Assembly (NCBI GenBank): GCA_038087875.1
Contig: CM075995.1
Span: forward strand, 434,001-498,000
Source: Malacoraja senta
Lineage: Eukaryota
Reading direction: 5' to 3'
Length of the DNA stretch: 64,000 nt
The position numbers were made by a program, and so were the translations under genes. Shown one piece after another: positions 1,463 to 63,312 of the stretch. Position 1 is the first letter of the stretch. Every line of letters begins with the position of its first letter. A model generated the notes under the pieces. The model was not told where the DNA came from, searched no databases, and saw nothing but the letters and a program-made list of their open reading frames with translations.

Positions 1463-3250
1463 CATAGAAAAATGGACAGTAGAGGCATATGGGCTAAACG
1501 CAGGCAGGTGTGACTAGGGTAGATGGGAAAAGTTGGTCGGTGTAGGCAAGAGGGCCAAAGTGCCTGCTTCCTCGTTGTATAACTCTATGACTTCAAAGGC
1601 ATTTTTGCTTCCTCCTAACTAGCGGTATCTATGACAACTTTTTAATGGAAAGTTCACCAAATTTTTTGCAGTTACCAGACTTTACCAAATTCCAAAAGTG
1701 CACGAAAAAAAGATGAGCATCTGGTCCTGATGCTCTACTTTGTTTGATACAAAGAAAAATACGTAGGGATAGGTTCCACACAATAAGCGAGTTCGGTATT
1801 CCAAAAAACACAAGGAATCATGGGATTTGTCAAAGGTCACTCGCTATAAAGGAAAAGCGAACGAAGCGCTGGCTGTATGAACTATGTATAAATTCATATC
1901 TTTATTCATGATTTATGTGTAAAAATATATTTAATCTGAGGAGCGGGGGTGCCAGGCAGCGGTAGAGCGGGGTGTAACAGCAAGAGAGAGGGGGCAGATG
2001 TGAGTGGGAGACAAGGTGGAGGGGAGAGACTGGACTGGCGGAGTGACATTCTTGGCAGCTGCAGACCTGCGTCTCATCCGCAATCTGGATCGAACCCAGG
2101 TCCCCAGCGCTGCAAGTGCTGCCGAACCGCCACTGGACCATCCCCGTCTCCCGTCTACCCCCCCCCCCCCCACCACCCATCCCTGCCCAGGAGGTGGCCG
2201 GACGGATGGGACACCGGCCCCCAGGCCCACAGCCAGCGCGGAGAAGAAGCGGCAACCCCAGCTCAACTCCAACTCTCCCGCCGGGGAATGGCCCCCCGGA
2301 ACCGGAGCCAGCGCCTCCACCCTGCGGCGACTGCAAGTCCGGCCCGACACCTCCGGCCGCCCCCAGACAAGGACGGGACACCCGGGAGTGGACGGGTACA
2401 GCCCAGCAGCAACTCAACAGCGCCCGCAGCGCCGGTGACCCGGGTCAGACGACGGACCCCGACCCCACGAAGCAGCACGATCTCCTTCACTCACCAAAGC
2501 ATAAAGCAATAAAATCGACAAAATGTCACCCACCTGAAGTTACTTTGGACAATGTTGGCAGAGAAAGAGTTTGCGTCTGAAGAGCATTGTGTTTAAAATT
2601 AAACGCTAAAATGTGCCCGACTTTTGACAGGGAAAGGCAACTTTTGCCAGTCAGCCAAACACCCCAGGAGCTAATAATGGAATGAAAGTATAGGATGTCG
2701 TGTCAGGTAAGGGTGATCAGTGACCATTTCCTGCTAAATTACATGTCATTACTGTGGCACTCGTCCAGGTTCAGGTTTAAGATTTAACGGCTCGTGAAAC
2801 ACGTTTAAGAGAATATTAAAATGGGCTCACGCTGACAAGAATAGAGGATGAGCACACACCACAAAACGCAAAGAGGATTGTTTATACATCGATGTTGTTC
2901 TTATAGCACTAAAGTCACGAAGGGCTCTGAAAATAGGTTTGGAGAACTTTTTTGAATAATAACGCGTTTCTTAACAGGAGCTAAAGGGGTGCTGCAACTT
3001 GGGGCTAACACAAGATTGAAACTTGGTGCAAGTTAAAAAAGCATCAGACATACTTGGATAAGATAGGGTGTCAGGGGTTATGGGGAGAAGGCAGAAGAAT
3101 TTGGTTAGGAGGGAGAGGTAGACCAGCCATGATTGAATGGCGGAGTATGCTTGATGGGCAGAATGACCTCACTTATGACGGTCAAGTCTCTTCCAGCTTT
3201 CTTTCTCCCACCCCCACACAATCAGTCTGAAGAAAGGTCCCGACCCAACG

Positions 3251-3387
3251 TTCTTCTTGTAGGATGATGAGTCTACAAGTTCTTCTTACATCATCCCACA
3301 AGTTCTTCTTCTTGTAGGGTGCGCTCATCATCCCACAAGTTCTTCTTCTTGTAGGGTGCGCTCATCATCCCACAAGAAGAACTTGTG
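3251..3387. repeat. 37-bp tandem repeat (2 full copies plus partial) with inverted pieces
   Basis: catcatcccacaagttcttcttcttgtagggtgcgct at 3289-3325 and 3326-3362, partial copy from 3363, then inverted aagaacttgtg. Confidence 0.85.
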
Positions 3388-3445
3388 AATGGAAATGCTT
3401 CATTGGTAGTGTGAAAAACAATGAGAACAAGTTTAATTCAGCAAA

Positions 3446-3655
3446 GATACACACAAAATGCTGGAGTAACTCAGTGGGTCAGGCAGCATCTCTGGAGAGA
3501 AAGGATGGGTGACGTTTCTGGTCAGGACCTATCTTCAGACCGACCCGAAATGTCACCCATCCTTTCTCACCAGAGATGCTGCCTGACACACTGAGTTACT
3601 CCAACACTTTGTGTCTATCTTCGGCATAAACCAGCCCCTGCAGTTCCTTTTTACA
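3446..3655. mobile_element. Palindromic Penelope-derived short element
   Basis: Arms acacaaaatgctggagtaactcag...gacgtttc and cccgaaatgtcaccc...gagttactcc...ttgtgt are inverted copies of the Penelope 3' terminus seen at 53710-53806. Confidence 0.8.
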
Positions 3656-3774
3656 CGTTAAATTCAGCCTTTGGATCATGACGTGATACAAATGTAAATA
3701 TGCGGCAAAGATGGTGACTTGATGGTTTATGGGAAAGACACAAAACGCTGGAGTAACTAAGCAGATCAGACAGC

Positions 3775-4200
3775 ATAGAAACATAGAAACATAGAAAATA
3801 GGTGCAGGAGTAGGCCATTCGGCCCTTCGGCCATTCAATATAATCATGGCTGATCATCCAACTCAGTATCCTGTACCTGCCTTCTCTCCATACCCCCTGA
3901 TCCCCTTAGCCACAAGGGCCACATCTAACTCCCTCTTAAATATAGCCAATGAACTGGCCTCAACTACATTCTGTGGCAGAGAATTCCAGAGATTCACCAC
4001 TCTCTGTGTGAAAAATGTTTTTCTCATCTCAGTCCTAAAAGATTTCCCCTTTATCCTTAAACTGTGACCCCTTGTTCTGGACTTCCCCAACATCGGGAAC
4101 AATCTTCCTGCATCTAGCCTGTCCAACCCCTTAAGAATTTTGTACGTTTCCATAAGATCCCCCCTCAATCTTCTAAATTCTAGCGAGTACAAGCCGAGTC
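3775..4200 (-). mobile_element. CR1 3' fragment with (ctatgttt)n tail, inserted into a Penelope-derived palindrome
   Basis: ORF 3863-4192 is CR1 ORF2 C-terminus; tail agaaacatagaaacatag; host arm resumes at about 4207. Confidence 0.88.
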
Positions 4201-4934
4201 TTTCCTATCTCTGGAAAAAATGGATAGGTGACGTTTCGGGTCGGGATGCCTTCTTCTGAAGAAGGATCCCAACCCGAAATGTCACCCATCCATGTTCTCC
4301 AGAAACGCTACCTGACTCGGAGTTACCCCAGCACTTGCTAAATGTCTCTCCTTGATAAACCAGCATCTGCAGTTCCTGGTTTCTACATTTTGACTTTATG
4401 AGAAGGCTGTCAAACTACAAATGGGAAAGTTCAAGATTTTCAGTCGAAATATTCGACCGAATTTTTAGGTGTCTCGTGCATGGACACAAGGGAAAGCCAT
4501 AAACACGGCAACGGTGTTTGCATTATCTACAGGTGGTGTCATGTCATGTTTGAAGATGGATCATCTGATGAAGTTTATGAAAGGTGTGTATGTGTGTAAA
4601 GTACAAACAAATGGCAACTGTGTGCGGTGAAAGCAAAGAATTGGTAGACAGTGTGAGTGCTGAAAATCTAGTGAGTAAACCTCTGGGAGATGAACGAGGG
4701 GAGTGTATGGACATTGACAAGGATGCTCCTGTTACATTGATGAAATCATAGAAAACGTGCTTTGAATCATAATAAACCTAATGTTCAAGCAGTAATTGAC
4801 AAAGAAGAGAAGCCAGAGGAATCAGTCTCTTGGAGAAGTGCTGCTGAAGGAGTCAAAACGACCTTGAAACCCAACTTATGAAATTAAGATGGAGTAACTC
4901 AGCTCGTCAAAGGCAGCATCTCTGGAGAAAAATA

Positions 4935-5305: not shown

Positions 5306-5631
5306 TAAGATCCAAAGATTTCGAAGATCCCGAAGAATAAGATTTCAATATGATTCAATAAGATCAAAGGACAGGTGATATTTTGTGTCGGGACCCTTCT
5401 GGGCCTTGAAACCTGTTGAGCAATGGATAATAGAAACAAAAGACTCCACATGCTGGATTGCAAAACTAAAAAGTCCTGAAAAGCGCTATATAAATAAAAG
5501 GTATTATTATTATTATTATTATTATAAAGTGGATCAGAGAGCAACCCTGGAGACCATGAACATGAAGAAGTCGCGACCCGAAACATCAACTATTCCTTCT
5601 CTCCAGAGATGCTGTCTGACCCACTGAGTTA

Positions 5632-5831
5632 AGGGCCTGTCCCACTTGGGCATCATTTGAGCGTCATTTACACGACATCATCAGCGACGCGCACGTGATG
5701 CGCGCATGGCGTGTGGTGAGGCGTGGTGGCATAGGCAGGGTTGTGCGCGGCGCACCAGGATTTGGGGATGTACAAAATCTTCGCAAGCCACCTGCGTGAC
5801 GCGCAAATGACGCCCAAGTGGGACAGGCCCT
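5632..5831. mobile_element. PIF/Harbinger-like MITE, family A (CpG-rich)
   Basis: TIR AGGGCCTGTCCCACTTGGGC/GCCCAAGTGGGACAGGCCCT; inserted at the TTA of the host repeat ctgagTTActcc. Confidence 0.8.
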
Positions 5832-6945
5832 TAACTCCAGCTTATCTTCGGTTCAAACCAGCATCTGTAGTTCCTTCCTAGTCTAGCACTTTGTGTCTTT
5901 TTGAGCAATGATAGGGCTTTTCTTTCGTTGAGTTCGAGATGCTAGTTAGACTCAAAAAGATGGGAGTCGGATTGTAGGCTAATTGGCTTGGTAAAATTAT
6001 AAATTGTCTCTAGTGTGTGTGTGTGTGTGTAGGGTAGTGTTAATGTGCAGGGATCGCTGGTCAGCATGGACTCGGTGGGCCGAAGGGCCCGTTTCCCCGC
6101 TGTATCTCTAAACTTAACTAAACATACGAATTGATTTATTATCCTAAAAATAAAGCTGCAATTTTGCTAAATACCAGAGGTCTCAGTTGTCATGGAAATC
6201 TCCCAGTAACAAAGCTGTGTAACAATCTGTTCTCTCTCCCTGTTACCTCCCTGTTACCCCCTCCCCCCCATCCCCTCCACGCCCCAATCTATCACATTCC
6301 TCTACAACCCATTAACTGTTTTATTTGAATGGTATAAACATCTAATCACGGTTCCGCTGCCTCCACTTCCACCACTGACTAATTTAATTTCACCAAACAC
6401 AAGTCAACCTTTAACATCCGAGTCGTTACATTTTCTAAATGATCCACTTCTCCGCTCAGGGTGAATGGCGTCATCTTTGCAGATCCCTAATTAACAATCA
6501 CAGCGTGTTTCTTCTTTCTAAGTTGAAACCAAGCAGTGTTGATTAAAAAAAAACGACATTGAAAAGAGCCAGCCTCAAAAGCCCATTCTGTATAAGACCC
6601 ATCATGTCTGTCAATTTACACCACCAAACACTTCACATAACTTCAGTCAGTTTTCCAGGGAGTAAAATGCACTGAATCATTACTTCATCTATAATTCCTG
6701 AACTAAAGCCAAGGCAGCAAAATTCTGCATTCTCAAAAGGCAACAAAGGACAAAACAAATGCCGATGGGAGGCTTCCAACCTAGAGGATCAAAATTAATG
6801 TTTATAACTTCTAGGAGCAGAATTAGGCCATTCGGCCCATCGTGACTACTACGGCATTTAATCATGACAGATCTATCGTTCACTCTCAACCCCATTCTCC
6901 TGCCTTCTCCCCATAACCCCCGACACCCATACTAATCAAGAATCG

Positions 6946-7238: not shown

Positions 7239-7371
7239 TCTATCAATCTCCGCCTTAAAAATATCAATTGATTGGCCTCCTCATGAGGCAATGAATTCCA
7301 CAGATTCACCACCCTTGGACTAAAGAAATTCCTCCTTGTCTCCTTTCTAAAGGTACATCCTTTTATTCTAA

Positions 7372-8095: not shown

Positions 8096-8936
8096 CATCT
8101 ATTAACTATTGCTACACAGTTGCTGATTAATACGTTCAAACATTTCCCATAAATTGTTTCCTTCCTTTGATGCATCCAAATTAGCCTGTCCAGAACATCC
8201 AAGTATGGATGTGGCAAGAGGATAAAACCGGGATAATTCCCAAACTGGAATCATCAGTTGTTCCAATGTCATTTTATTAATGAGAAACAGATCTCCAATT
8301 CAGGAGTTACCAAAAACATCCAAACTTAACAACGTGCTTAAAAGAGCTCAGGAGTGCAAGGCTTTTTTGAAGCCATTTAAAAAAACACTGTAGACACAAA
8401 ATGCTGGAGTAACTCAGCGGGACAGGCAGCATCTCTGGAGAGAAGGAATGTGTGACGTTTCGGGTCGAGACCCTTCTTCATTAATTAATTATTTTATTAA
8501 TTGTTTGTTCATTAATTTAAAAAATACCAATCATTTACAATGCCCAGTGGCAGTTTTGCAAGATTCAGCACAGAAACAGGCCCCCTGGTGCACCAAATCA
8601 GCACCATAATATATCACCCTATAATAATCCCATTTTATTCTCCACACATTCCCTTTCATTTGCTCCAGATTTTACCAGCCATCTGCACACTAGGGTCAAT
8701 TATAAAAGTCACATTTAAAATTATAAAAGAACTGGACAAGCTAGATGCAGGAAAAAATGTTCCCAATGTTGGGGGAGTCCAGAACCAGGGGTCACACAAT
8801 TTAAAGATAAGGGGGAGGCCATTCAAAACTGAGATGAGAAAAAAAAAAATTCGCCCAGAGAGTTGTGAATCTGTGGAATTCTCTGCCACAGAAGACAGTG
8901 GAGGCCAATTCACTGGATGGATTTAAAAGAGAGATA

Positions 8937-10756: not shown

Positions 10757-10817
10757 CTGCATATTTCGCTTTGTTGTTTTCATCCATGGACCAGAAGCAA
10801 TAGTCAAAAGCGAAGAC
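10757..10817 (-). CDS. kif13a: Kinesin-3 motor-domain exon (equivalent to KIF13A exon 4), 61 nt, VFAFDYCFWSMDENNKAKYA(G)
   Basis: Minus strand reads poly-T-aactAG|GTCTTCGCTTTTGACTATTGCTTCTGGTCCATGGATGAAAACAACAAAGCGAAATATGCAG|GTgagc, with canonical splice sites. The peptide matches the KIF13 motif VFAFDYCFWSMDE..KYAG. FAFDYC favours KIF13A over KIF13B (FAYDHC), from recall of the human proteins. Confidence 0.93.
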
Positions 10818-11695: not shown

Positions 11696-12967
11696 TATAC
11701 ACGGTTATATGGCATGAGAGAGAACTGAAATGTTTGCACATCATAGCTACTAAATGCAATCAGTGAAATCTGCTACCAAGGGTGGGCCAGAATATTTAAG
11801 TATGTCAATGTACTGCAACATGAAGTCCATCTTTAGCTCGTTCATTGAAAGGTGGGACTGCTTTTCCAAGGAAAACTAGATGATACGTCCTTGGATCCTA
11901 ACTATTTAATACCCAGTAGCGGTTTTGCAAGTTATTGCATTCCTCCAGGTGCTCCTTACAAAGCATTTCAGAACGGTACTATCAGTAGGCAAAAAGAGTC
12001 TCGACCTGAAACGTCACCCATTCCTTCTCTCCAGAGATGCTGCTTGACCCGCTGAGTTACTCCAGCATTTTGTGTCTATCAGTAGACACCATAATAGTGT
12101 CCACATGATACTGGGCGATGCAGTGGCGCAGCGGTATAGTTGCTGCCTTACAACGCCAGAAACCCGGGTTCAATCCTGACTACGGGTGCTGTCTGTGCGG
12201 AGTTTGTAGCGTTCTCCCTGTGACCGCACCCGTTTCCTCCGGGTGATCCGGTTTCCTTCCACACTCCAAAGACGCGCAGGTTTGTAGGTTAATTGGCTTA
12301 TGTAGTAGGATAGAACTAGTGTACCGGTGATCACTGGTCTACGCGGTATCTCTAAACTAAACCAGAACTAAATGGCAAACATGCAATTCACATTATAATA
12401 CAAATGATTGAATGAGCCAATTTCGGTCTGATTGGGACAGAGCGAGCCCACCATTCTTGTTAAGTTCCGCCTCTTCCTTACATTGGACCATGCCATTTTT
12501 AACTTCCAACTTTCTCAGCCAAAGGTGAAAACTCAGTAAAATGTCCCATTTAAAACATTTCAATCATGTACATAATCCTACATAGTGGCAATGCAAAAAT
12601 GACAAGGTAAACTATTTACTATAGTTACTTAAGGCAATAATTAAGTTTAACAAACGTTTTAAAAAATGTAATGATTGTTTGAAGACACTTGACTGCTGCG
12701 TGCTTCCTACAAAGAAATACTAAGTCTAAGAATGCAAATATCTGGAAAATATAAAAGCAAATTGTTCATATTATACAGCATGGAAACAGGTCCTTCGGCC
12801 CAACTTGCCCACGCCGACCAACATGTCCCATCTACACTAGTCCCACCTGCCTGCTATTTGGCCCATATCCCTAAACTTTTCCTATCCATGTACCAGTGCA
12901 AATGTCCATTAAAAGAATTTCCTAACACTGACTCATTCATGTGCGATACTTTATTTTTAAGAACTGC

Positions 12968-13299: not shown

Positions 13300-14088
13300 C
13301 TTTAATAGCAGGATCAGTCCACCAGAGCAGAATAAGTAAGTGTTGAGAAATGCATCAGATCCACCAGGACACAGACAAGGATTTTGTTGGGAGGGAGGGG
13401 GGGGGGGGGGGAGGAGGAGAAAAAGGAAAATAAAGTTAATTTCCAGAACATTTATCACCGAAGATCATCAGACAAACATGTATTTTCATTTCAGATCCTT
13501 TTCACTGCGTACAGAAATAAAGCCTTTGCAATGAACATTATTGAATTTATTAAACATTCTTTGCGTTCTACTGGGATGAATACGATACGATATGATTACG
13601 ATATAACTTTATGCATCCCCGGAGGGAAATTGGGCTGCGGGGATGAATAAAGTTTAATCGTATCGTAATAATAGGCAAGAAACATCTTTTTAAAAGAAAG
13701 ACATCAGCAGCCACAAGTGTTAGACTTGCTGGTGATAATTGAGCTACAGCGACTCTCAATGTTTCAGGGGACACCTAGGCAGTAATTCTATCAAGAGAGA
13801 CCGATGGGTTGGTGATCTAGAAGAGAAGTTTAATTCCTCCTCCTCCCCACTCAAATCGGGCAGAAGGTACAAAGGCTTGATAGGGCATACCATCCGATTC
13901 GGGAACAGTTTTCATCTCTGTGTATGAAGGAACTGCAGATGCTGGTTTAAACCAACGTTAGACAAAAAATACTGGAGTAACTCAGCGGGTCAGGCAGCAT
14001 CTCTGCGGAGAAGGATTTGAAGAAGGGTCTCGACCCGAAACATCACCCATTCCTTCTCACCAGAGATGCTACCTGTCTTGCTGAGTAA

Positions 14089-14292
14089 AGGGCCTGGAAT
14101 CACAAAATCCTGGGGCACCGCACGTCACTGCCTACGTCACCATGCACCATGCACGCGTAATGCATGCCATGTGCACGTAATGCACGCCATGCGCACGTCA
14201 CGTGCTCGTCACGACGCAAGCGTCGTGCATCGTGACGCGTAAATGATGTTGCGTCAATGACACGCAAATGATGCCCAAGTGGGACAGGTCCT
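14089..14292. mobile_element. PIF/Harbinger-like MITE, family A (opposite orientation to 5632 copy, left TIR partly deleted)
   Basis: AGGGCCTG...CCCAAGTGGGACAGGTCCT; flanks TAA and TTA within host ctgagTTActcc. Confidence 0.72.
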
Positions 14293-15787
14293 TTACTCCA
14301 GCATTGTGTGTCTATCTACAGTTTGATCTCTGCTGTTTTCAAACTATTGAATAGTTCTCTCATAAACTATGGGTGTAATCCTGGTCTCCCAACCTACCTC
14401 ATTGCAGATCTTGCGCTTAAAAAAAAAATTGCACTTTCTCCACATCTGCAATGCTATAACTTTGAAACACTATATTCTGCACTCTGGTATATTTTCTCTT
14501 TGCACTAGCTGTTGTACTTGTGTTTGGTTTAATTGTACTTATGGTATGATTCGACTGCATAGCAAACAGATGAAGTTCTGGCTGTATCTCAGTGCACAGG
14601 CCAATAATAAACTAATGCCAATACATAGCAACAAATGAGCGAGAGATCAGTAAGTAGCAATCTTATGGATATCTCCATTTAAATACTTGCTTCGTAAAAA
14701 TAAGGTAATTTTGTTACCAAGTTAGTCCTCAAAATGCTACCCATAGCTCATATTAACAGTATAAACTTTAACGCTGAAATAAATATAAACACCGATGAGT
14801 AGGAAGGAGCTGCAGATGCAAGTTTACACTGAAAGTAGACACAAAGTGCTGAGGTAACTCAGCGGATCAGGGAGCATCTCTGGAGAGAAGGAACAGGTGA
14901 TGTTTCGGGTCGAGAAGAAGGGTCTTGACCCGAAACGTCACCCATTCCTTCTCTCCAGAGATGCTGCCTGTCCCGCTGAGTTACTCCAGCATTTAGTGTC
15001 TATAAACAGTAATGAATTGGGGACCAAAGATGATGCCACTTTATACAAATACTCAAGTTTCTGCTTTCCACCTACTCTCTTCCCTGTTGCACCATTTGAG
15101 CATGGGAATTTATCGGACTTTACTGGCTTTACCTTGCACCAAACGTTATTCCCTTATCATGAGTATATACACTGCAAATGGCTCGACTGTAATCATGTTT
15201 TGTCTTTCCGTTGAAGATAAGACACAAAATACTGGAGTAACTCAGAAGGTCAGGCAGCATCTCCGGAGAGAAGGAATGGATGACGTTTCAGGTCGAGACC
15301 CTTCTTCAGACTGTCTTTCTGCTGACTGATTAGCACGCAACAAAAGGCTTTTCACTGTACCTTGGTACACACTAAACTAAACTGAATTGAACTGAATTAA
15401 ATACCTAACATTACATGGTTTAGATTAATTGCAAGCCAAGTTGGAACTTGGGTACGATTCCACACTCATGAATAATTACCGCAAATGCCTTTCAGCTCAG
15501 TATTTGAGGCAATACTGATCCAGCCATTACATTTAGGTCTAGCACAAAAACACTTAGTGACTTCCTGCCGATAACAGGATGCAATAATGTACAAAGTGTA
15601 TCCTTTACATATTGTTTCCTGATTGAGATACCCTGCTAAATTTAAACCATCCACGGAATCCTTGAAGCAGTGTTTCGTCTCTTTAACTTCAAACAATCCT
15701 ATAGCTTAGTTTAGCTTAGAGACTCAGCATGGAAACAGGTCCTTCAGTACACCGGGTCCATGCTGGCCAGCGTTCCATGCACACTAA

Positions 15788-44814: not shown

Positions 44815-45605
44815 CAAAAAAACGGGAAGGCAGACTATTATCTAAATGGTGGCTGATTAGGAAATGGGGAGATGCAGCGAGACCTGGGTGTCATGGTACA
44901 CCAGTCATTGAAAGTAGGCATGCAGGTGCAGCAGGCAGTGAAGAAAGCGAATGGTATGTTAGCTTTCATAGCAAAAGGATTTGAGTATAGGAGCAGGGAG
45001 GTTCTACTGCAGTTGTACAGGGTCTTGGTGAGACCACACCTGGAGTATTGCGTACAGTTTTGGTCTCCAAATCTGAGGAAGGACATTATAGCCATAGAGG
45101 GAGTGCAGAGAAGGTTCACCAGACTGATTCCTGGGATGTCAGGACTTTCATATGAAGAAAGACTGGATAGACTTGGCTTATACTCGCTAGAATTTAGGAG
45201 ATTGAGAGGGGATCTTATAGAAACGTACAAAATTCTTAAGGGGTTGGACAGGCTAGATGCAGGAAGATTGTTCCCGATGTTGGGGAAGTCCAGAACAAGG
45301 GGTCACAGCTTAAGGATAAGGGGGAAATCCTTTAAGACCGAGATGAGGAAAAACTTTTTCACACAGAGAGTGGTGAATCTCTGGAACTCTCTGCCACAAA
45401 GGGTAGTTGAGGCCAGTTCATTGGCTATATTTAAGAGGGAGTTAGATGTGGCCCTTGTGGCTAAGGGGATCAGGGGGTATGGAGAGAAGGCAGGTATGGG
45501 ATACTGAGTTGGATGATCAGCCATGATCATATTGAATGGCGGTGCAGGCTCGAAGGGCCGAATGGCCTACTCCTGCACCTATTTTCTATGTATCTATGTA
45601 TCTAT
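44815..45605 (+). mobile_element. Young CR1 3' fragment with a 211-aa open ORF2 piece
   Basis: ORF 44872-45507 uninterrupted; 3' UTR and tail; nested within an opposite-strand CR1 (44698-46330). Confidence 0.93.
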
Positions 45606-50481: not shown

Positions 50482-51237
50482 GAGGTAATATAGTCAAATC
50501 AAAATTTACAATTTAAAGTATTACATAGATTACATTACTCTAATACAAAACTAAATAGAATCTTCCCACATATCTCTCCTATTTGTGATAAATGTCAGCA
50601 TTTAGAGGCTAACTTAACTCATACATTTGTAAATTGTATAAAAATTAAATTAATTTCTGAAGTTGTCAACACCCAATTGGATCCCGACTCAAAACTAATA
50701 ATACTAGGAATATCAGAACAAAGCCTAACACTTACTACAAGCCAAAGAAACTTTCTCGACTATAGTATAATAACCGGGAAAAAATTAATATTAACATTTT
50801 GGAAAGGCCCTATAACCCCCACAATTAAAATGTGGATTATGGAAATGTCGGAGACCCTACACCTGGAAAGAATCAGACTTGTCTTAATGGACAAACAAGA
50901 ACTTTTTGTCAGAATACGGTCTCCATTCATTGACTATTTGAAGGGGTAGATCGGTTCGGCACGGGAACCTGACTGAAGCTTGAACTCAGGATTAGATGAA
51001 AAGTTATACTTTATAATTTACGAACCCATCTCCAATGTTGTATTATTAGTAAATTATTCCATCCTTCTTTATCATGCTTTTTTTTTCTCTTTCTTATTCT
51101 CTATCTATAAAAAAACTAGAAGCTGAGTCAATATACAACTGATAATATTAGCAATGTAAGACTGATATACATGAAATGTTCTTATTATGATATGTACTTG
51201 CTTCTAATAAAAATATATTTTTTTAAAGAAAAAAAAG
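50482..51237 (+). mobile_element. L1-clade LINE 3' fragment
   Basis: QFKVLHRLHYS..CDKC..LTHTFVNC zinc-knuckle, KKLILTFWK..PTIKMW..L.LERIR C-terminus, AT-rich 3' UTR, AATAAA and A-rich tail. Confidence 0.85.
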
Positions 51238-51720: not shown

Positions 51721-53239
51721 CTAATATAACAGCATTTAAGACACTTGGCCAGGCACATGGCTAGAATTTCTACCTCCTAGTTCCATATGCACACCACGCT
51801 CTGTGAAAAAGTCACCCCTCATGTTCCTATTAAATCTTGCTCCTTTCACCTTTAATTTATGTCCCTTTTATTGATTCCCCAACCATTGATAAAAGGCCCT
51901 CCAATCAACAGATCAATTCCCCTCATGATTTTATACACTTGGCCTTCATGAACTAATTAAGATCCCAAATACAGACACAAAATGCTGGAGTAATTCAATG
52001 GGGCAGGCAGCGTCTCTGGAGAGAAGGAATGGGTAACGTTTTGGGTCGAGACCCTTCTTCAGTCTTCCTTCCCTCCAGAGATGCTGCATGTCCCACTGAG
52101 TTACTCCAGCATTTTGTGTCTATCTTCAGTTTAAACCTATACATAACTAAGATCCCACATAATTTCAGTAGATTACTTCATGAAAGATGTGCAAACCTTC
52201 ATTATAAATATTTCCCTACATCACATGGTCCGAACTGGGATGGTCAGTTGCATAGACTGATCAGACACAGTTTCGGATGCATCTCCTAAGATATTGAAGC
52301 CCTGTCCACACGACAATTCAGGCTTGAGCTGACAAGAAATATTAAGCAACATTGGTCAATGACAATAATCACCAGAAAGAAGGGTGGTAATGCAGGCTTA
52401 CAACGCCCGAGACCCGGACTCGATCCCGACTATAGGTGCTGTCTGTACGGAGTTTGTATGTTCTCCCCGTGACTGCTTTGGTTTACTCCAAGATCTTCAG
52501 ATTCCTCCCACACTCCAAAGGTTAATTGGCTTGGTATAATTATAAAATTGTCCCCAGTGTGTGTAGAGCGGTGTTAATATGCGGGGATCGCTGGTCGGTG
52601 CAGACTCGGTGGGCCGAAGGGCCTGTTTCCTTGCTGTATCACTAAACGAAACTAAACCAAACCAATTCTCAATCCACGCCAAGGGTAGACACAAAGTGCT
52701 GGAGTAATTCAGCGGGTCAGACAGCATCTCCAGAGAAAAGGAATCATTTTGGGTCAAGACCCTTCATCAGACCGGAAATGTCACATATTTCCTTTCTCCA
52801 GAGTTGCTGCCTGGCCCGCTGAGTTACTCCAGCATTTTGTGCCTATCTTTGGTGTAAACCAGCATCTGCAGTTCCTTCTTACACACTATCTATCCATGCC
52901 ATTGCATTATGCCCATCCCCATGCACTGTCTGAAGAAGGGTCTCGACCCCCTGAAATGTCACCAATTCCTTTTCTCCAGAGATGCTGTCTGACCCGCTGA
53001 GTTACTCCAGCTTTTTGTGTCGCTCCCATGCGGTGCAACTTTAACACCCAAGTTCCTTCCAAAATATAAATACATCGCATTCACTAGTTCCCTAAAGAAT
53101 GGCAGCTGATTACTTAAACTCTTACTTTCCCTTTAACAAATTCAGGCTGGTTCTGCCAAGTTATTTTCTAAGTATTCTGTTATTGCAACCTTCATTACGA
53201 ATTCCTGCATTTCCTTTACAGCTGACATTAGGTTATATA

Positions 53240-53806
53240 TCCTATATATCGGTGAGACCAAGCGCAGGCCTGGCGATCATTTAGCTGAACACCTTCGCTC
53301 AGTCCACCTAGGATCTCCTGGTTGCTAAACACTTTGACTCCCCCTCCCATTCCCACACTGACCTTTCTGTCCTGGGCCTTCTCTACTGTCAGAGTGAGGC
53401 CTAATGCAAATTGGAGGAACAGCACCTCATATTTCGCTTGGGCAGCTTACAACCTAGCAGTATGAATTTGACCTCTCTAACTTTAAGTAACCCTTGCTTT
53501 CCCTCTCTTTCCATCCCTACCCCATCCTAGTTCTCTGACTAGTTTCATTGTCCTCCTGATTACATTTTACTGATTGTGGACCTCGTTGTCACCTTCCCCT
53601 CAGTTAACAATGATCCATTCTACATTTTCCTTGATCTTTCATCCCCTTTGATCTCTCGTTTTCACACCTTACCCTTCCATATCTCTTATGTTTCCCTCTA
53701 CCCTGACTCTCAGTCTCAAGAAGGGCCTCGACCCGAAACGTCACCCATTCCTTCTCTCCAGAGATGCTGCTCATCCTGCTGAGTTACTCCAGCATTTTGT
53801 GTCTAT
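53240..53806 (+). mobile_element. Penelope-like 3' fragment, second subfamily
   Basis: YIGETKRR..EEQHLIFRLG remnants, pyrimidine-rich UTR, terminal module ending ttttgtgtcta. Confidence 0.85.
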
Positions 53807-56037
53807 ATTAGGTTTAGCACATCAGCAGCTCCCTAGATTGCTCCTTTAAATGATAGTTATTATTGCTGACCTCTGATGTGCAGGAGTCAGTCTAAAATCA
53901 ATAAAAGTCTGAACATTGATGACAATGCAACCACTGTCTCGATTGCCACTCTGACTCCACGACTAGATTGGCACATTTTCATCCTTGGGGATTCAATAGT
54001 CATATTGAACTAGTGTCCAGTGTTTCTTCACAGCTTTACAAAAGAAAACTTACTGGATGGACATCATATCATCCGAGCACAATAATTTCATCACCTTGTT
54101 TACCTTTACGACATTATTCCATTTTAAAATGGCCGATGCAAAACGTCACATATTTTCTCAATCAAGATCGCAGGGTTAGTGGTAAATTATTTTAGTTAGG
54201 GACAATGATTATGACACCAATAATAATTTACAACTTTTAAAATCAATTAATAGTCAATTTTAATGCAACACGTCTTAGTGCAAAAAGCTCTCGACTTTCA
54301 TGGTGTTTGCTGTACAATTGGCACCATATTTGCCAGATAAGGTTCCAACCACTCACAATCAATTTACAGTACTTTGACAATTGCTCCAGGTATTACTGCT
54401 GCTTAATATCTATTAAAGTGAGGCCAACACTTCACAAGTTCTACATTGTTAATTGTTCCGTGAGCTGAAATCCAAGACAATAACCACCGCAAAGAAGGGA
54501 CAGATTAAACGCCTCCCCTCGACTTTCAACACATTACAATTGCTGAGCACCACCATCAGAATCCCAGCGGTGAACATTAACCAAAAACCTAAATGTAACA
54601 CATAGAGTGCAGAGAAGATTCATGAGAATGTTGCCAGGACTCGAAGGCTTGACCTGTAGGGAGAGGTTGGGCAGGCTAGGACTTACAGATGCTTGTCTAT
54701 GCAAAGACACGCAGAGTACTGGGGGATCTTGGCAGGTAGGGGCAGTATCTCTGAAGAGCATGGATAGGTGACGTTTCGGGTCAGAATTGGAGGTGTTGCC
54801 TGTCTTGCCCATCAGGCTATTGAACACAACGAATAAGCTCTGAGCTCTGAACTGCAAAAGACTATATTATTATTTGTTATTTGCACTTTATTTGTTATTT
54901 ATTGAACTTTTTCTTTTTTTTCCCCCATTATATACAATGTTTACATATTCACATATTCTGTTGTGCTGCAGCAAGTAAGAATTTCATTGTCCAGTCCGGG
55001 ACATAGGACAATAAAACACTCTTGACTCTTGTCTGTGGATGTTCTCGGGGAATGCTGCCTTGCCTGCTGGGTTATTCCAGCACTTTGTGGCTTTTTATCT
55101 TCATAAATCAGACAAGACCAAGCGGTCAACGTGGCCGGACGCACAAGACCGCAGGGGGAAGCCGCCAAGCCGTACCCGACATTGACCGGAGAGAAAGGAA
55201 CCAGCAACGGCAGACACGAAGGGCAAGGAGCGAGGCCAGTAAGAGTGTGAACTCTGGTCTGGCCATCCGCGCCCTTGAGGTCAGCTCGGGGAACAAAGGT
55301 GGACGGGTGATTGGAGTGGCGTTGGTTCACTGGACGATCTAGACTTCCAGGGAAGGTGACGGCTGGAGGCCCCGCAGCAGCCTGGGGCTCGCCTGGATCG
55401 GGAGCCACTCATTAGACCCAGAGCGCGGACTGGATTTTGAATATGGTGCCAAAACTTGGCGGCCTCAGTGGACTATTTCTGTAAGAAAGACACAAAATGC
55501 TGGGCCCACTCAGCGGGACAGGCAGCATCTCTGGAGAGAAGGAATGAGTGTCATTTCGAGTCGAGACCCATCTTCAGTCTGATCAGTCTGAAGAAGGGTC
55601 TCAATTCGAAATGTCACCCATTCCTTCTCTCCAGAGATACTGCCTGTCCCGCTGAGTTACCCCAGCATTTTGTGTGCATCTTCGATTTCAACCAGCATCT
55701 GCAGTTCTTTCCTACTGACTATATCTGTAAACTGTGCTAATCGGTGATTGTGCTTAGGTATGGCAATACTTCACTGAACTGTATGCCAAAGAAAGGATTT
55801 CACTGTGCGCAAGCAACATGGACCATTTATTCTTTGGAGCGCAAGAGGCTGAGGGGTGATCTAATGGATGTGTATAGAATCATGAGGGGAATTGATAGGG
55901 TGAATGCAGAGTATTTTATCAAGGGTACAGAAATCAAGAACCAGAGGACATAAATTTAAGGTGAGAGGAGCAAGATTTGATAAGAATCCAAGGGGCAACT
56001 TTTTCACTTGTGGGTGGTGGGTATATGGAATGATAAT

Positions 56038-56660: not shown

Positions 56661-57843
56661 AGGACTCCTCTTGGTATCTCTCTCTCAATCTTACCTATCC
56701 TTGTACCTGTCCAAGTGCCTTAAATGCTGTTATAGTAGCCGCCAGAGGAGGTAGTTGAGGCAAATACTACGACAGAATTTAGGACACGTACAGGTATATG
56801 GATAGGAAAGGTTGAGAGGGATATGAGCCAAACACAGGCAAACACGACCAGCTCAGGTGGGGCTCTTGGTCGGCATGGATGAGATGGGCCGAAGAGCCTG
56901 TTTTCGTGCTGTACGACTCTATCTGAGAGCAGGCTTTCAACTTCAGTTAAGTTTAGTTTAGAGATACAGTGAGAAAACATGCGCTTCAGCCCACCGAGTC
57001 TGGGCCGACCAGCGATCCCCGCACACTAACACTGGGGACCAGTAAGAATTTCATTGTTCTATCTGGGACATATGACAATAAAACACTCTTGACAATTTAC
57101 AATTATACCAAGCCAATTAACCTGGAGTATGGGAGGAAACAAGAGATCCCGGAGAAAACCCACGCAGGTCACGGGGAGAACGTACAAACTCCATACAGAC
57201 AGCACCCGTAGTCAGGATCGAACCCAGGTCTCTGGCGCAACTGTACTGTTGCGTAACCGTGCCGCCCTAAAATGGGGCTCAGATTAGGTTCTTGGTCAGC
57301 ATGGATGAGTTGGGCCGAAGAGCCTGTTTCCTTGCTGTACGTCTCTGTCTAAGATCAGACTATAGACGTACAGTGCTGGGGTAACTCAGCGAGTCAGGCA
57401 GCATCTCTAGCACTTTGTGTTTTGTTCAAGATTCCAGTATTTCCAGTTCCTTGTTTCTCCATTCCCAATTTATCTAAGAGATGCCAGGATCTATGCCAGG
57501 ATCTGAAAATAATATCCACCCACTGGTACATCTAATGGGCAGCATGGTGGCGCAGCAGGTAGAGTTGCTGTCTTAGAGGCCCGGGTTCGATCCTGACCAT
57601 GGGTGCTGTCTGTACGGAGTTTGTACATTCTCCCAGTGGCCGTGTGGGTTTTCTCCGAGATCTTTGGATTCCTCCCACATTCCAAAGGCGTACAGGTTTG
57701 CATTCCGATTGGCTGGACATAAGGGTAAATTGTCCCTAGTGTGTGTAAGATAGTGTTAGTGTGCAGGGCTCGCTGGTCGGCGCAGACTCGGTGGGCCGAA
57801 GGGCCTGGTTCCGCACTGTATCTCTAAACTAAACTAAAATAAT

Positions 57844-58179
57844 TAAGAAGGAACTGCAGATGCTGGAGAATCGAAGGTAGACAAAAGTGTTGGAGAAACT
57901 CAGCGGGTGCAGCAGCATCTATGGAGCGAAGGAAATAGGCAACGTTTCGGGCATAAACATTGACTTCTCCAATTTCCGGTAATCCTTGCTGCCTCCTCCC
58001 CTTCTCAGCTCTCCCTCAGCCCTCGGGCTCCTCCTCTTCCTTTCTCCTTTCTTCTCCCCCCCCCCCCCACCTCACCCCACATCAGTCTGAAGAAGGGCTT
58101 CGGCCCGAAACGTTGCCTATTTCCTTCGCTCCATAGATGCTGCTGCACCCACTGAGTTTCTCCAGCACTTTTGTCTACC
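57844..58179. mobile_element. Penelope insertion: inverted terminal module followed by a 5'-truncated forward copy
   Basis: Inverted arm 57844-57951 with tail aagaaggaactgcagatgctgg; forward 57952-58179; flanking duplication ctaaactaaaata. Confidence 0.82.
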
Positions 58180-58587
58180 CTAAACTAAAATATATTGGGC
58201 AGACAGACTTTAAAAAGCATAGATTACTCGTTGCAGCTTTGTAGGCGTATCTTGGAAAACGCCATCCACTATTGCTTTTCCAGATACTGTTTCAGCTGAG
58301 TCAGATGATCAGTTTACATCTCCGTCTCGGCTTTCAATGTCAAACCAAGTCTCTGGACGGCTTCCGGTATTCAGCGAGGCAGTCAAAACTGCATCAAGTT
58401 TCAACAGTTCGCCAGCCCCACTGAGTGTAATACAAAACAGTCTTCTCTTTGCTGGCTTTGATCTGTCTTTTTGTATTCTTTTAATTAATTTTAATTACAC
58501 AAAAACCTTTTCACTGTACTTCAGTACACGTGACTAATTTGTTCTGTGTACCTTATCATATCTCTTGGTTCCCTCTCCCCTGACTCT

Positions 58588-58623
58588 CAGTCTGAAGAAG
58601 GGTCTCGACCCGAAACGTCGCCT
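58588..58623 (+). ncRNA. Minimal hammerhead ribozyme-like motif (representative copy)
   Basis: CUGAAGA-A-GGGUC-UC-GACCC-GAAA-CGUC: core CUGANGA and GAAA, stem II, palindromic ACGU in place of stem III. Stem I is very weak, so activity is unproven. Confidence 0.65.
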
Positions 58624-58717
58624 ATTTCTTTTCTCCAGAGATCCAGCCTGACCCGCTGAGTTGCTCCGGCTTTTTGTGCCTATCTTTGGTGTAAACCAGC
58701 ATCTGCAGTTCCCTCCT

Positions 58718-59600
58718 ACATGGATGGAGATGTGGTTGGCAGACAGGAAACAAAGAGTAGGGATTAACGGGTCACTTTCAGAATGGCAGGCCGTGACTAG
58801 TGGGGTACCGCAAGGCTCGGTGCTGGGACCGCAGCTACTTACAATATACATCAATGATTTGGATGAAGGGATTCAAAGTAACATTACCAAATTTGCAGAT
58901 GACACAAAGCTGGGTGGCAGTGTGAACTGTGAGGAGGATGCTACGAGAATGCAGGGTGACTTGGACAGGTTGGGGGAGTGGGCAGGTGCATGGCAGATGA
59001 AGTTTAATGCGGATAAATGTGAGGTTATCCACTTTGGTAGCAAAAACAGGAATGCAGATTACTATCTAAATGGCGTCAAGTTGGGAAAAGGGGAGGCTAT
59101 TGAGGGAGTGCAGCGTAGGTTTACAAGGTTAATTCCCGGGATGGCGGGACTGTCATATGCTGAGAGAATGGAGCAGCTGGGCTTGTACACTCTGGAGTTT
59201 AAAAGGATGAGAGGGAATCTCATTGAAACATATAAGATTGTTAAGGGTTTGGACACGCTAGAGGCAGGAAACATGTTCCCGATGTTGGGAGAGTCCAGAA
59301 CCAGGGGCCTCAGTTTAAAAATAAGGAGTAAGCCATTTAGAACGGAGACGAGGAAACACTTTTTCTCACAGAGAGTTGTGAGTCTGTGGAATTCTCTGCC
59401 TCAGAGGGCGGTGGAGGCAGGTTCTCTGGATACTTTCAAGAGAGCTAGATAGGGCTCTTAAAAATAGCGGAGTCAGGGGATATGGGGAGAAGGCAGGAAC
59501 GGGGTACTGATTGGGGATGATCAGCCATGATCACATTGAATGGCGGTGCTGGCTCGAAGGGCCAAATGGCTTACTCCTGCACCTATTGTCTATTGTCTAT
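58718..59600 (+). mobile_element. CR1 fragment (RT to 3' end, internal deletion near 59095)
   Basis: SGVPQGSVLGP, FADDTKLGG; jumps from KLGKGE to AIEGVQRRF; (ctattgt)n tail. Confidence 0.92.
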
Positions 59601-60171: not shown

Positions 60172-61153
60172 TGCAATAATGTTTAAAAGACATTTGGATA
60201 GGCACATGGATATGGAGGCAATGGGGGGGAGGGGGGGGGATGTGGATCACATGCAGGCAGACGAGATTGGTTTATCTTACTATCATGCTCAGCATAGACG
60301 TAGTGGGCCGAAGGGCGTGTTCCTGTGCTGTACTTTTCTGTGTTCGATCAATTTTCAGCAAGATTCGATAGGAAATAACAGAGCCCAACAAATTGACTTT
60401 CTGAAGAAGGGTCTCGACCCAAAACGTCACCCATTCCTTCTCTCCAGAGTTGCTGCCTGACCTGCTCAGTTTTTCCAAGCATTTTGTGTTTTTAAAGCAG
60501 CAACAAACATCCACTTAAGATTTTGATTCTGTCACGAGAACTTGGTTTACGTTAAGGCGAGGAGGGAAAGATTCTCACGCAAAGGGTGGTGGGTGTATGG
60601 AACGAGCTGCCGGAGGAGTTAGTTGAGGCAGGGACTATCGCAACGTTTAAGAAACAGGTACGTGGATAGGACAGGTTTGGAGGGATATGGACCAAACGCA
60701 GGCAGGTGGGATTAGTGTAGATGGGACAAGTTGGGCTGAAGGGCCTGTATGCATGCTATGGCTCATGTATTCAATCAGGAGCAAAGGCAACCGATAGTTA
60801 AAAGCTACATCACCCAACACCACCCATGTCTTCAATACTATTTATAACCCAACTACCTAAGTATTGAATTTCAAAACCAAACAAGGGCAATGGGTTCTGG
60901 AAATAAACAATAGGACACAAGAGATTATGATCCAAATAAAGAAATACTGATGCCTGGCTGCCTGTTATAAAATCTGAATAAGAAAATGAAATCTGCCCAA
61001 GGGGAAAAATCATATCAGTTTCTCACGTGGAAGGGAAAAAAAAAATCTACATACTCCAAGTTCATTCACAAATAAAATACGGAGCACAGAAGTGTGCTCA
61101 ATGCAGTCCGTACCAACCGAGTTTCATCAGTTCAATTAGTTATAGAGATACAA

Positions 61154-61387
61154 TGTGGGAATAGGCTATTCGGCCCACTGAGCCTGCGTCGACCAGCAAT
61201 CACCCGTACACTGGTGATAAGACACAAAAATTGTGGGAATAGGCTATTCGGCCCACTGAGCCTGCGTCGACCAGCAATCACCCGTACACTGGTGATAAGA
61301 CACAAAAATTGTGGGAATAGGCTATTCGGCCCACTGAGCCTGCGTCGACCAGCAATCACCCGTACACTGGTGATAAGACACAAAAAG
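61154..61387. repeat. 78-bp tandem repeat, 3 copies
   Basis: Unit starts at 61154, 61232 and 61310; the copies are essentially identical. Confidence 0.95.
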
Positions 61388-61896
61388 CTGGAGTAACTGA
61401 GCGGGTCAAACAGCATCTCTGGAGAAAAAGAATGGGTGACGTTTCAGGTCTCGACCCAAAATGTCACCCATTCTTTTTCTCCAGAGTTGCTGTCTGACCC
61501 GCGTAGTTACTCCGGCTTTTTGTGTCTATCTTTGGTTTAACTCAGCATCCGCAGTTCCTTCCGCAACACCCCGTACACTGGTTCTATGTTATCCCAGTTT
61601 TGCATCCTACACGCTAGGGGAAAATGCAGACGCTAATTCACCTACAAACCAGCACGACTTTGGAATGTGGGAGGAAACCGGAGCGCCCGAGGAAAACCCA
61701 CGTGGTCACAGGGAAAATAGACAAACTCCGCACAGACAGCACCCGTGCTCAGGATTGAACCTGGGTCCCTGGCGTTGTCAGGCAGTAACTCTACTGCTGC
61801 GCCACTTATCCAGAATTTTCCATGGTACTAAACCACTCTCTTTAGAGAGTTGAGAGTGAGCAAGGCCAAACTGCTGGAGAAATTAGCACTACCAGT

Positions 61897-62210
61897 GGGC
61901 GGTCACGGTGGCACAGCGGTAGAGTTGCTGCCATTACAGCGCCGGAGACCCGGGTTCGATCCCGACTACGGGTGCTGTCTGTACGGAGTTTGTACGTTCT
62001 CCCCATGACCTGCGTGGGTTTTCCCTCGAGGTCTTCGGTTTCCTCCCACACTCCATAGACGTACAGGTTTGTAGGTTAATTCGCTTGGTAAATGTAAAAA
62101 TTGTCCCTAGTGTGTGTAGGATAGTGTTAATGTGCGGGGATCGCTGGTCGGCGCGGACCCGGTGGGCTGAAAGGGCCTGTTTCCGCGCTGTATCTCTAAA
62201 CTAAACTAAA
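61897..62210 (+). mobile_element. HE1-type V-SINE, full length
   Basis: gggcggtcacggtggcacagcggtagag...tctctaaactaaactaaa. Confidence 0.9.
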
Positions 62211-62981
62211 CAGTGATAGGTTTTCAGAAGGTAGACACAAAATGCTGGAGTAACTCAGCAGGTGAGGCAGCATCTATGGAGGGAAGGAATGGGTGATGTT
62301 TTGGGTCGAGGCCCTCCTTCAGATTCAGGTTAAGTATTAAACTGTGTGAGCAGAGTTGTACCACGGGGCTGACATGGTGGTGTGGCTGTAGAGTTTCTGC
62401 CTTACAGCGCCAGTGACCCGGGCTTGACCCTGACTACGGTTGCTGACTGTATGGAGTTTGTATGTTCTCCCCATGACCGCTTGGGTTTTCTCCGGGAGCT
62501 CCGGTGTCCTAACAAATTCCAAAGATGTGCAGGCATTGCTCCTCTCCAGACATGCTGCCTGTCCCGCTGAGTTACTCCAGCATTGTGTGTCAGCCTTCGA
62601 TTTAAACCAGTTCTTTCCTACGGGTTTGTAGGTTAATTGGCTTGGTATAAGTGTTAAATTGTCCCCAGTTTGTGTAGGGTGGTGTTAGTGTGTGGAGATC
62701 GCTGGTCTGTGTGGATTCGGTGGGCCGAAGGGCCTGTTTCCACGCTGTATCTTTAAACTTATTTGAACAACCAGAGGGAGAGAAAAAAAAGTGTGATTTA
62801 CAGAAAACCCTCATTATTAATAGTACATCCCCAAATGATTCTTAATGATGGTGTAGCTCAGCGGGTCGAGACCCGAAAGTTCGCCCATTCCTTTTCTCCA
62901 GAGATGCTGCCTCGCCCGCTGAGTTACTCCAGCATTTTGTGTCTACCTTCGATTTAAACCAGCATCTGCAGTTCTTTCTTA

Positions 62982-63312
62982 AAGCCTTGTCCCACAGTAT
63001 GAGTTCATTCCAAGAGCTCTCCCGAGTTTGCCCTGATTCGAACTCGGAGATTTACGGTAATGGCCGCTCGTCGGTACTCGGGGCTCTCGTGGACATTTTT
63101 CAACATGTTGAAAAATTTTCATGAGTCTTCCCGAGCTTACCTGCCATTAGCGAGTCTTCCCGAGTACCTGCCGTTAGCGTTACGAGCCGCTAAGAGACGT
63201 CCCCGAGCTCCGACGTACCCGCTACGTTCATTCTCCGTGCTTACTACGAGTTTGATTTTTTTTAAACTCGGGAGAGCTCTTGGAATGAACTCGTACCGTG
63301 GGACATGGGCCA
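62982..63312. mobile_element. PIF/Harbinger-like MITE, family B
   Basis: TIRs ..TGTCCCACAGTATGAGTTCATTCCAAGAG and inverse; TTA TSD; sits in the tail of a Penelope-derived element. Confidence 0.82.

Follow-up and report, generated by a model that had tools for sequence, protein, structure and literature searches.

Short hammerhead-bearing copies in a skate genome are probably by-products of a Penelope element's own RNA

Introduction

How Penelope elements make their pseudo-long terminal repeats (pLTRs), their tails and their inverted copies, and what their hammerheads do, is an open question. A locus of the skate Malacoraja senta raises it in concentrated form. Across a window of 64,000 nucleotides (assembly GCA_038087875.1, contig CM075995.1, positions 434,001 to 498,000, the whole stretch analysed here), a module of about 100 bp with a minimal hammerhead ribozyme motif recurs dozens of times, mostly without coding sequence. 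What are these short copies, and how were they made? The original prediction, drawn from the letters of the window, took the module for the 3' terminus of a Penelope element and proposed that it spreads like a retrozyme-type non-autonomous family. We agree with the first proposal. As for the second, we conclude that the short copies are probably by-products of the RNA of an autonomous Penelope element, inserted singly with target duplications, and not a separate retrozyme family.

The repeat family and its parent element

All copy counts refer to the 64-kb window and not to a genome-wide set. A hidden Markov model built from 12 window copies picked up 54 pieces, whereas the reversed window gave none. 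A longer model raised the number to 57 pieces, which together make up 4,825 bp (7.5%) of the window, roughly one piece in every 1.1 kb. For a strict core pattern there are 7 occurrences, where 60 Markov controls average 0.017 (maximum 1). The recurrence first reported is thus borne out. The pieces fall into two subfamilies, A (48 pieces) and B (9 pieces), each with short members and long ones linked to the open reading frame (ORF) or the 3' untranslated region (UTR). Eight of the 57 pieces reach upstream into the UTR or ORF, namely two remnants, at 35040-36457 and about 53240-53806/53832, and six further pieces near 3188, 27915, 31993, 47046, 57959 and 58549. The others consist of the terminal 95 bp or so of the element, with or without a further stretch of about 40 bp that we call the tail. 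The pieces were scored as 45 units, 12 of them head-to-head pairs, an arrangement that accounts for 24 pieces and was absent from the original prediction. True insertions number about 43-44, because two further pieces are halves of copies interrupted by another element.

The longest remnant identifies the parent element. It encodes the C-terminal part of a reverse transcriptase (RT), a CX4CX2C linker and a GIY-YIG endonuclease (GIY-YIG match 9.9e-05), the linker motif lying in the 35799-36260 frame between the two enzymes. Its RT region is 59% alike to P0005, a protein that itself has RVT_1 and GIY-YIG matches. A set of 74 candidates contained 13 longer relatives, of which a little skate protein comes closest (82%); the other 12 stand at 57-75%, the named ones coming from skates, rays and sharks. 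The Penelope origin of the module, and its place at the 3' end of both remnants, are well founded. The copies that carry more than the module are as follows, with two features of the longest remnant.

35040 to 36457, plus strand: 5'-truncated Penelope-like element with the C-terminal part of the RT, linker, GIY-YIG, pyrimidine-rich 3' UTR and terminal module; a stop and frameshifts; 8-bp target duplication
36257 to 36362, plus strand: 3' UTR whose signals resemble those of an intron, namely GT at the stop codon, a pyrimidine tract and, just before helix I, a CAG within an initiator-like TCAGTCT; putative function
36364 to 36393, plus strand: minimal hammerhead core (CUGAAGA, extra A, 4-bp helix II, GAAA mutated at G12, ACGU), putative cleavage after 36391
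53240 to 53832, plus strand: endonuclease end, UTR, module and partial tail, subfamily A
31701 to 31993, minus strand: endonuclease end fused to the module at AGT (-2 to 0), intact core, 15-bp target duplication
27915 to 28146, plus strand: UTR, module and tail
58549 to 58720, plus strand: UTR piece, module with intact core, tail
46906 to 47046, minus strand: UTR piece, module and partial tail
3188 to 3251, plus strand: UTR piece and 5' part of the module

In published accounts, a CX2-5CxxC linker between RT and GIY-YIG defines the Neptune/Nematis type, and inverted 5'-truncated copies with a 30-40 bp tail at one end are known in Penelope-like elements (Craig 2021, PMC8557442), as are 8-10 bp target duplications and solo pLTRs (Arkhipova 2013, PMC3846280). 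The skate element has an RT followed by a C-terminal GIY-YIG and the linker, and its copies show the inverted 5'-truncated arrangement, the optional 30-40 bp tail and the target duplications, so that membership of the endonuclease-bearing (EN+) Penelope class holds by every feature that could be tested. Judged from its sequence, the repeat is the pLTR of a Penelope element, probably of the Neptune type. It shares with the Neptune-type elements described in those passages the RT, the linker, a GIY-YIG with inner cysteines, the pLTR, 5' truncation, head-to-head copies, the tail, target duplications and solo pLTRs. It differs in that module-only insertions dominate and have a common 5' edge at the start of the ribozyme, an edge unreported in the Neptune passages.

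The ends of the copies

Module positions are numbered from C3 of CUGA (+1, window base 36364 in the copy at 35040-36457), with putative cleavage after +28 (36391). Among the 49 arms without UTR sequence, 24 begin between -3 and +5. In terms of base-exposures, 24 stops fall in 206 there and 23 in 2,373 between +6 and +60 (p about 1e-18), so that the rate per base is some 12-fold higher at the edge, and unpaired copies alone behave likewise (13 of 26, p=2e-10). The flanks of the edge-starting copies are not overlooked UTR. The remaining 25 short arms start scattered from +9 to +91, and none of the 49 starts at the cleavage site (+27 to +31).

The edge recurs in contigs of other runs. Contigs of run X2 were aligned to 35020-36480 at 80% likeness, 12 loose ends of 3,199 and 15 joints of 738 being listed and some uncounted; run X15 is flagged as probably DNA, and the raw-read runs X22 and X23 gave one read each, which is uninformative. 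Among the best supported of the 5' loose ends listed for X2 are 36361 (1,021) and 36362 (919), corresponding to -2 and -1, where the flanks are mixed and AT-rich; X15 contigs have one at 36361 (141). No 5' loose end lies at the cleavage site among the 12 listed of 3,199 for the X2/X15 contigs. Go-back joints among the 15 listed land at 36359-36361, and in the copy at 31701-31993 the ORF passes into the module precisely at AGT; template jumps from the end of an RNA would be expected to give such joins. Another listed joint, found in X2 and X15, leads from the module end back into the ORF (36445/36453 to 35720). As the edge falls beyond the helix II hairpin but short of the C-rich UTR, it would fit the end of an RNA better than a stall of the RT; stalling at helix II was rejected as the cause of the main peak, which lies beyond that hairpin. 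Of note, two insertions (57959 and 60392-60399) open with the same 8 nt of the ORF end, one continuing through the UTR and the other jumping to the module, and this opening is a possible second start point.

At the other side, the 3' ends are bimodal. They fall at +88 to +99 in 23 of the 57 pieces and at +120 or more (to +132) in 17, with 7 between and 10 shorter, so that two ends about 40 bp apart bound the tail. This pattern matches that of PAc, a Poseidon element of the green anole in which two internal RT start sites, downstream of the hammerhead, bound a tail of 30-40 bp, and whose protein nicks and extends both strands in vitro (Frangieh 2024, PMC11167929). PAc belongs to another clade, and its ORF starts in helix II. 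In both majority sequences of the skate module a putative helix is predicted between +49 to +56 and the tail. These 8 nt can pair with either of two similar stretches, +76 to +84 or +107 to +114, each 10-20 nt before one 3' end, and it is tempting to speculate that such pairing might position two RT start sites.

Target duplications of 8-16 bp flank 13 of the 45 units, compared with 1.75% of 400 random sites, and 7 of the 12 head-to-head pairs have them. Pairs and solo modules are for this reason insertion events and not leftovers of deletions. In 7 of the 12 pairs, one arm carries the full tail whereas the other stops where the module ends, and several junctions show 2-3 nt of microhomology. 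The youngest pair (57843-58179) is especially informative, as it joins a short tailed arm to an arm that reaches the ORF, the two being 1.5% apart at non-CpG positions, inside one 13-bp duplication. Three pairs share nearly one central junction (14914, 17879 and 44575). All five pairs that were folded are predicted to form long hairpins of 78-101 base pairs. The head-to-head pairs, strand not applicable, are the following.

57843 to 58179: subfamily B, minus arm +11 to +129 (tail), plus arm from the ORF end to +94; 1.5% apart at non-CpG; 13-bp target duplication
3444 to 3656: -1 to +96 and +15 to +131, target duplication
4207 to 4377: 0 to +52 and 0 to +123
13920 to 14324: +36 to +131 and +2 to +71; the right arm resumes at 14293-14324 after an inserted inverted-repeat element
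14799 to 15003: +12 to +129 and +3 to +93, target duplication
17801 to 18005: +14 to +94 and +3 to +130, target duplication
26319 to 26468: degenerate pair
44476 to 44686: to +127 and +3 to +113
51965 to 52137: -2 to +99 and +35 to +107, target duplication
52686 to 52884: -1 to +92 and +16 to +131
55483 to 55715: -3 to +96 and -3 to +129, target duplication
61376 to 61562: joined within helix II, +9 to +91 and +10 to +126, 13-bp target duplication

The solo modules and their relatives with at least part of the 5' half comprise:

15213 to 15313, minus strand: solo module with an intact core; its target duplication, 10 bp when compared with the empty site, adjoins the 5' edge
39408 to 39505, minus strand: solo module B, intact core, starts at -1, 15-bp target duplication
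21766 to 21862, plus strand: solo module B, intact core
49910 to 50039, minus strand: solo module B with tail, intact core, no helix I
11991 to 12080, plus strand: solo module from +4, 10-bp target duplication
8391 to 8480, minus strand: solo module from +2
52928 to 53021, plus strand: solo module from -1
60400 to 60489, plus strand: solo module from 0, 8 nt matching the ORF end just before
62227 to 62323, minus strand: solo module from 0
5563 to 5880, plus strand: module from +2 with tail, split by an inverted-repeat element (5563-5631, 5843-5880)
18122 to 18245, plus strand: old diverged module from -1 with tail
36587 to 36668, plus strand: diverged module from +4
5374 to 5400, minus strand: fragment +5 to +31
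62863 to 62981, plus strand: module from +9 with tail, helix II inverted

A model for the origin of the short copies

These ends suggest how the short copies may have been made. The RNA of the element would begin at the A two bases before CUGA (-2) in the upstream pLTR, within an initiator-like TCAGTCT, and would thus carry a module at both ends. The RT/GIY-YIG protein would nick the two DNA strands 8-16 bp apart, and copying would start at one of two internal sites, where the module or the tail ends. Priming on the 3' module would yield the long, variably truncated copies. Priming on the 5' module would run off the RNA end after about 95 or 130 nt and leave a short copy. If both strands were primed, two cDNAs would be joined head to head by 2-3 nt of microhomology, with the tail typically on one arm. 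The hammerhead core would be kept in source elements and decay neutrally after insertion, and where the copies end would not depend on cleavage. The main text of the PAc study does not deal with run-off copies or twin priming.

Several points weigh against this account. Five of the 12 pairs lack the one-tail pattern, and the two arms of a pair resemble each other only moderately more than they resemble other copies (3 of 11 fall in the closest 5%). It is in favour of the model that short copies could not be told from long ones by sequence (permutation p=0.56, 35 arms), but a 90-bp alignment, as used in that test, has little power to reveal a separate short lineage. X2 and X15 are contigs, with no run on record as RNA, and contigs cannot show where RNAs start; what they contribute rests on the 12 loose ends and 15 joints listed. 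Summed X2 contig depth, likewise in favour of the model, is 0.1-1.3 million over the RT, higher at the endonuclease end (1.8-4.7 million) and highest over the module (8.4-9.9 million), yet depth is no copy number and depends also on likeness to one reference copy. The A at -2 does take the +1 position of TCAGTCT under the general initiator consensus, but such an initiator-like 7-mer occurs by chance at 1.1% of positions. The window has no full-length copy (pLTR-ORF-pLTR), in which the tail would be followed by the ORF. In Drosophila virilis, Penelope is reported to have a 75-nt intron that ends at helix I and a start site 46 nt upstream of that intron (Schostak 2008; PMC4209133). As the skate UTR signals match that arrangement, the CAG may be a splice acceptor and not part of an initiator. 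Lastly, the pairs may stem from fold-back or self-priming, which has been proposed (Arkhipova 2013, PMC3846280), instead of twin priming.

More tentatively, and as a possibility rather than an expectation, the copies could be the footprint of a whole Penelope cycle. This would comprise a capped RNA starting at -2, which would cut helix I to 2 bp, two internal RT starts, twin priming, and template jumps from the RNA 5' end, occasionally onto a 31-nt fragment released by protein-assisted cleavage, the core serving partly as a promoter or RT-landing signal.

The hammerhead core

The majority sequence of both subfamilies keeps CUGAAGA, an extra A, a 4-bp helix II with a tetraloop, GAAA and ACGU. 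The features of a minimal hammerhead (CUGANGA, extra base, helix II, GAAA, NUH) are thus present, and the claim of a minimal type I core with a palindromic helix III is borne out by the sequence: the whole core is spanned by 23 of the 57 pieces, and ACGU, which is self-complementary, is found in 16 of these. The core is intact in 8 of the 23. The examples first cited for paired stem II (21770, 58592, 58087 and 39476-39503 on the minus strand) read as stated; nevertheless, GGGTC-TC-GACCC cannot close on a loop of 2 nt, so that the stem has 4 bp, not 5, with a CUCG or UUCG tetraloop. Only the fourth pair varies (T-A in 29, T-G in 4, C-G in 1 and unpaired in 3 of 37). Helix I has 0-3 bp in all 23 complete cores, 2 bp in 12, and lacks the 4-5 bp published for minimal hammerheads. 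For helix I we also compared, with a relaxed pattern, 127 same-core motifs from 123 metagenome loci of other organisms, a set with redundancy kept and Penelope nature not shown; at least 4 bp are present in 80 of the 127, against 2.5% in offset controls. The skate-specific pattern has 0 matches in the metagenome contigs. Some same-core motifs there also occur as head-to-head pairs (L037/L110, L044, L067, L081, L099, L120), and their 5' edges lie 3-55 nt upstream of CUGA, depending on the family.

Selection appears to have acted on the core. In subfamily A, 9 of 255 non-CpG core cells are substituted versus 240 of 2,391 downstream (p=3e-4). The difference points to selection on source elements, although a promoter or protein-binding constraint would look alike. 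G12, which lies in a CpG, is changed in 9 of 34 copies compared with 20 of 84 at CpG outside the core, and inserted copies therefore seem to decay neutrally. At 36384, the G12 position mutated in the 35040-36457 copy, the majority letter is G in both X2 and X15. Separately, the three A's of GAAA (+22 to +24) have 0 substitutions in 126 cells, below the neutral decay elsewhere, which may reflect context or slack in the alignment.

Activity is a different matter. By nearest-neighbour energies only, the dimer fold of four copies costs 15-28 kcal/mol relative to the minimum, while motifs with a helix I of 4-6 bp have medians of 10-13. Five natural copies have no folding stability beyond that of shuffles (z -0.5 to +0.5). 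An Rfam comparison, proposed for the original prediction, returned no hammerhead match at E<=1; the 10 matches at that threshold are weak microRNA/CRE ones, those shown lying on inverted pairs. With a 2-bp helix I, cleavage would be weak at most, and only as a protein-assisted dimer. Lunse and colleagues reportedly observed dimer cleavage of small variants.

Comparison with known hammerheads is instructive. The minimal hammerheads of metazoan Penelope elements occur in thousands per genome, mostly singly and some in opposite-strand pairs, are 'probably related to truncated PLEs' (Penelope-like elements) and have low activity in vitro (Cervera and de la Pena 2014, PMC4209133); the portion of that paper available names no cartilaginous fishes. 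The skate motif resembles those described there in the core boxes, the extra base between 9 and 10.1, G10.1-C11.1 and the palindromic 15.2-16.2. It differs in its 4-bp helix II and in a helix I of 2 bp, compared with 4-5 bp in schistosome families, 2 bp being given only for a D. virilis variant with a longer helix III. In function the skate element would be akin to the published minimal hammerhead elements, apart from the missing 4-5 bp helix I. The hammerhead of PAc, for its part, cleaves only with protein, is dispensable for insertion and has no reads at its cut site (PMC11167929).

Alternative explanations

Unlikely, but the best of the alternatives, is a true non-autonomous family resembling short interspersed nuclear elements (SINEs), where short masters would be transcribed from an internal promoter of their own and the Penelope protein would mobilise them in trans. 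Such masters would account for the sharp 5' edge, for the target duplications and for termini outnumbering coding sequence in contig depth, and the central junction that three pairs nearly share would fit as well. Non-autonomous Penelope derivatives have been published (Craig 2021, PMC8557442; Li 2026, bioRxiv 10.64898/2026.07.22.740005). An independent lineage of short copies is nonetheless not apparent, both subfamilies mixing short and ORF/UTR-linked members inseparably in the low-power test given above. The pairs with a shared junction carry the tail on different arms and are therefore not copies of one palindromic master, and the pair at 57843-58179 unites a short arm with an ORF-reaching one in a single insertion.

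The 5' edge might instead be set by an intron acceptor, or by a strong RT stop at the UTR junction, and not by a transcription start. We regard this as quite improbable. A GT at the stop codon, a pyrimidine tract and a CAG just before helix I are present in three UTR variants (36257-36362, 53487-53713 and 57977-58085), and D. virilis Penelope is reported with the same arrangement, so that the skate UTR may possibly harbour a retained intron of that kind. However, an acceptor predicts an edge at 0, and the contig peaks listed are at -2 and -1. Furthermore, no spliced copy of this UTR was seen in the window, no window copy has a shared upstream exon, and an exact intron-skipping joint is absent among the 15 listed of 738.

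That the repeat is an active retrozyme-type family, as first proposed, with a hammerhead that cleaves as a dimer, yields small circular RNAs and can cut host pre-mRNA, is in our judgement very doubtful. Non-LTR retrozymes are described as head-to-tail tandems of about 150-450 bp units, each with a mostly canonical hammerhead, and are expressed as circles (Cervera 2020, PMC7229834; Li 2026); Li 2026 reports retrozymes in its one cartilaginous fish. The skate copies are like them in being non-coding, dispersed and related to pLTRs and in bearing a type I hammerhead, and the conserved core and palindromic helix III of the source elements would suit such a family. So would rare head-to-tail duplications of a 30-38 nt ribozyme segment in X2/X15 (joints from 36391-36397 to 36359-36366); their donors end close to the cleavage site, yet the subfamilies also diverge from the reference there, which makes these duplications ambiguous, and two of these rows carry a single G before -2. 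Unlike retrozymes, the skate copies are solo or inverted, have a minimal motif and do not end according to the cleavage site. There is no closed helix I or loop 1 as in canonical hammerheads with loop 1-loop 2 contacts. No tandem module array occurs among the 28 tandem-repeat rows of the window, and no neighbours abut head to tail. By the published definition (tandem units, each with a hammerhead), the repeat in this window is therefore not a non-LTR retrozyme. The absence of starts at the cleavage site, the short helix I, the costly dimer fold and the pair at 57843-58179 speak against it too. Termini do exceed coding sequence, as originally predicted, and the copies have shared boundaries.

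As for plain random 5' truncation and nothing more, it is a known Penelope hallmark and would suit the 25 scattered starts, but it is contradicted for about half of the copies by the pile-up at -3 to +5 that recurs in contigs of other runs, and we give it next to no credence.

Host gene and other features of the window

A 61-nt exon bounded by AG/GT (10757-10817, minus strand) encodes part of the motor domain of a KIF13-family kinesin. The protein structure matches are to KIF13B (E 4e-06); kif13a, the paralogue named in the original prediction, is a putative assignment. Minus-strand copies are accordingly sense within the pre-mRNA of a KIF13-family gene. A Pfam scan of 120 of the 145 unmasked minus-strand frames did not recover this exon, and a pattern search for an upstream micro-exon of the gene had no match. 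Sense copies are not depleted in the gene (18 unpaired copies on the plus strand, 15 on the minus strand), and on these small numbers there is no sign that they harm the host transcript. Cleavage of the host pre-mRNA is unlikely, because only 8 of the 23 complete cores have stayed intact, the CpG in the core decays neutrally and helix I never exceeds 3 bp. An effect of ribozyme copies on the pre-mRNA is thus not supported.

Ten further pieces of the family lack the 5' core or have only diverged remains of the module.

28984 to 29037, minus strand: short piece +42 to +96, subfamily B, 12-bp target duplication, no ribozyme core
177 to 232, plus strand: piece +42 to +97, no core
3733 to 3776, minus strand: piece +51 to +94, no core
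4890 to 4931, minus strand: piece +39 to +78, no core
20542 to 20639, minus strand: piece without the 5' core, partial tail
50174 to 50230, minus strand: piece without core
54678 to 54783, minus strand: diverged piece from +16, tail remnant
55052 to 55096, plus strand: piece +51 to +91, no core
57362 to 57408, minus strand: piece +47 to +93, no core
62534 to 62621, plus strand: piece from +32, partial tail, no core

Self-repeated sequence makes up 56% of the window. Many RT fragments resemble long interspersed nuclear elements (LINEs); there is also one cysteine/histidine-rich LINE-like C-terminus (24337-25546, 44857-45507, 58652-59452 and 50494-50949; putative family labels). An element with short terminal inverted repeats (5632-5842 and 14087-14292) splits two module copies at the same place, +71 to +73, and is likely a small DNA-transposon family inserting at TTA/TAA, its class being a guess. 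At 61154-61386, three exact 78-bp tandem copies take in the outer end and flank of the 61376 pair but not the ribozyme core. In cartilaginous fishes, some predicted receptor-transporting protein 3-like or neuromedin-U receptor models (P0002, P0011, P0013) end in the endonuclease of the element. The receptor-transporting protein 3-like fusion is seen in two species and may be an exonisation or a recurring annotation artefact.

Implications

The literature yielded nothing on this skate family or on a 5' boundary at the hammerhead edge, in a search that lay outside Repbase/Dfam and most subscription papers, so the family may well have been catalogued already. Most of what we describe is known biology, to which the 5' edge adds one testable mechanistic clue. 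Counting hammerhead motifs overstates the number of live ribozymes, since most copies here are broken, lack helix I or lie in long hairpins. A dense family with sharp ends and target duplications allows a direct test of run-off synthesis and twin priming. If the core does act as a promoter or RT-landing signal, this would explain how pLTRs are regenerated, and the short copies could map where a poorly understood element starts and stops copying.

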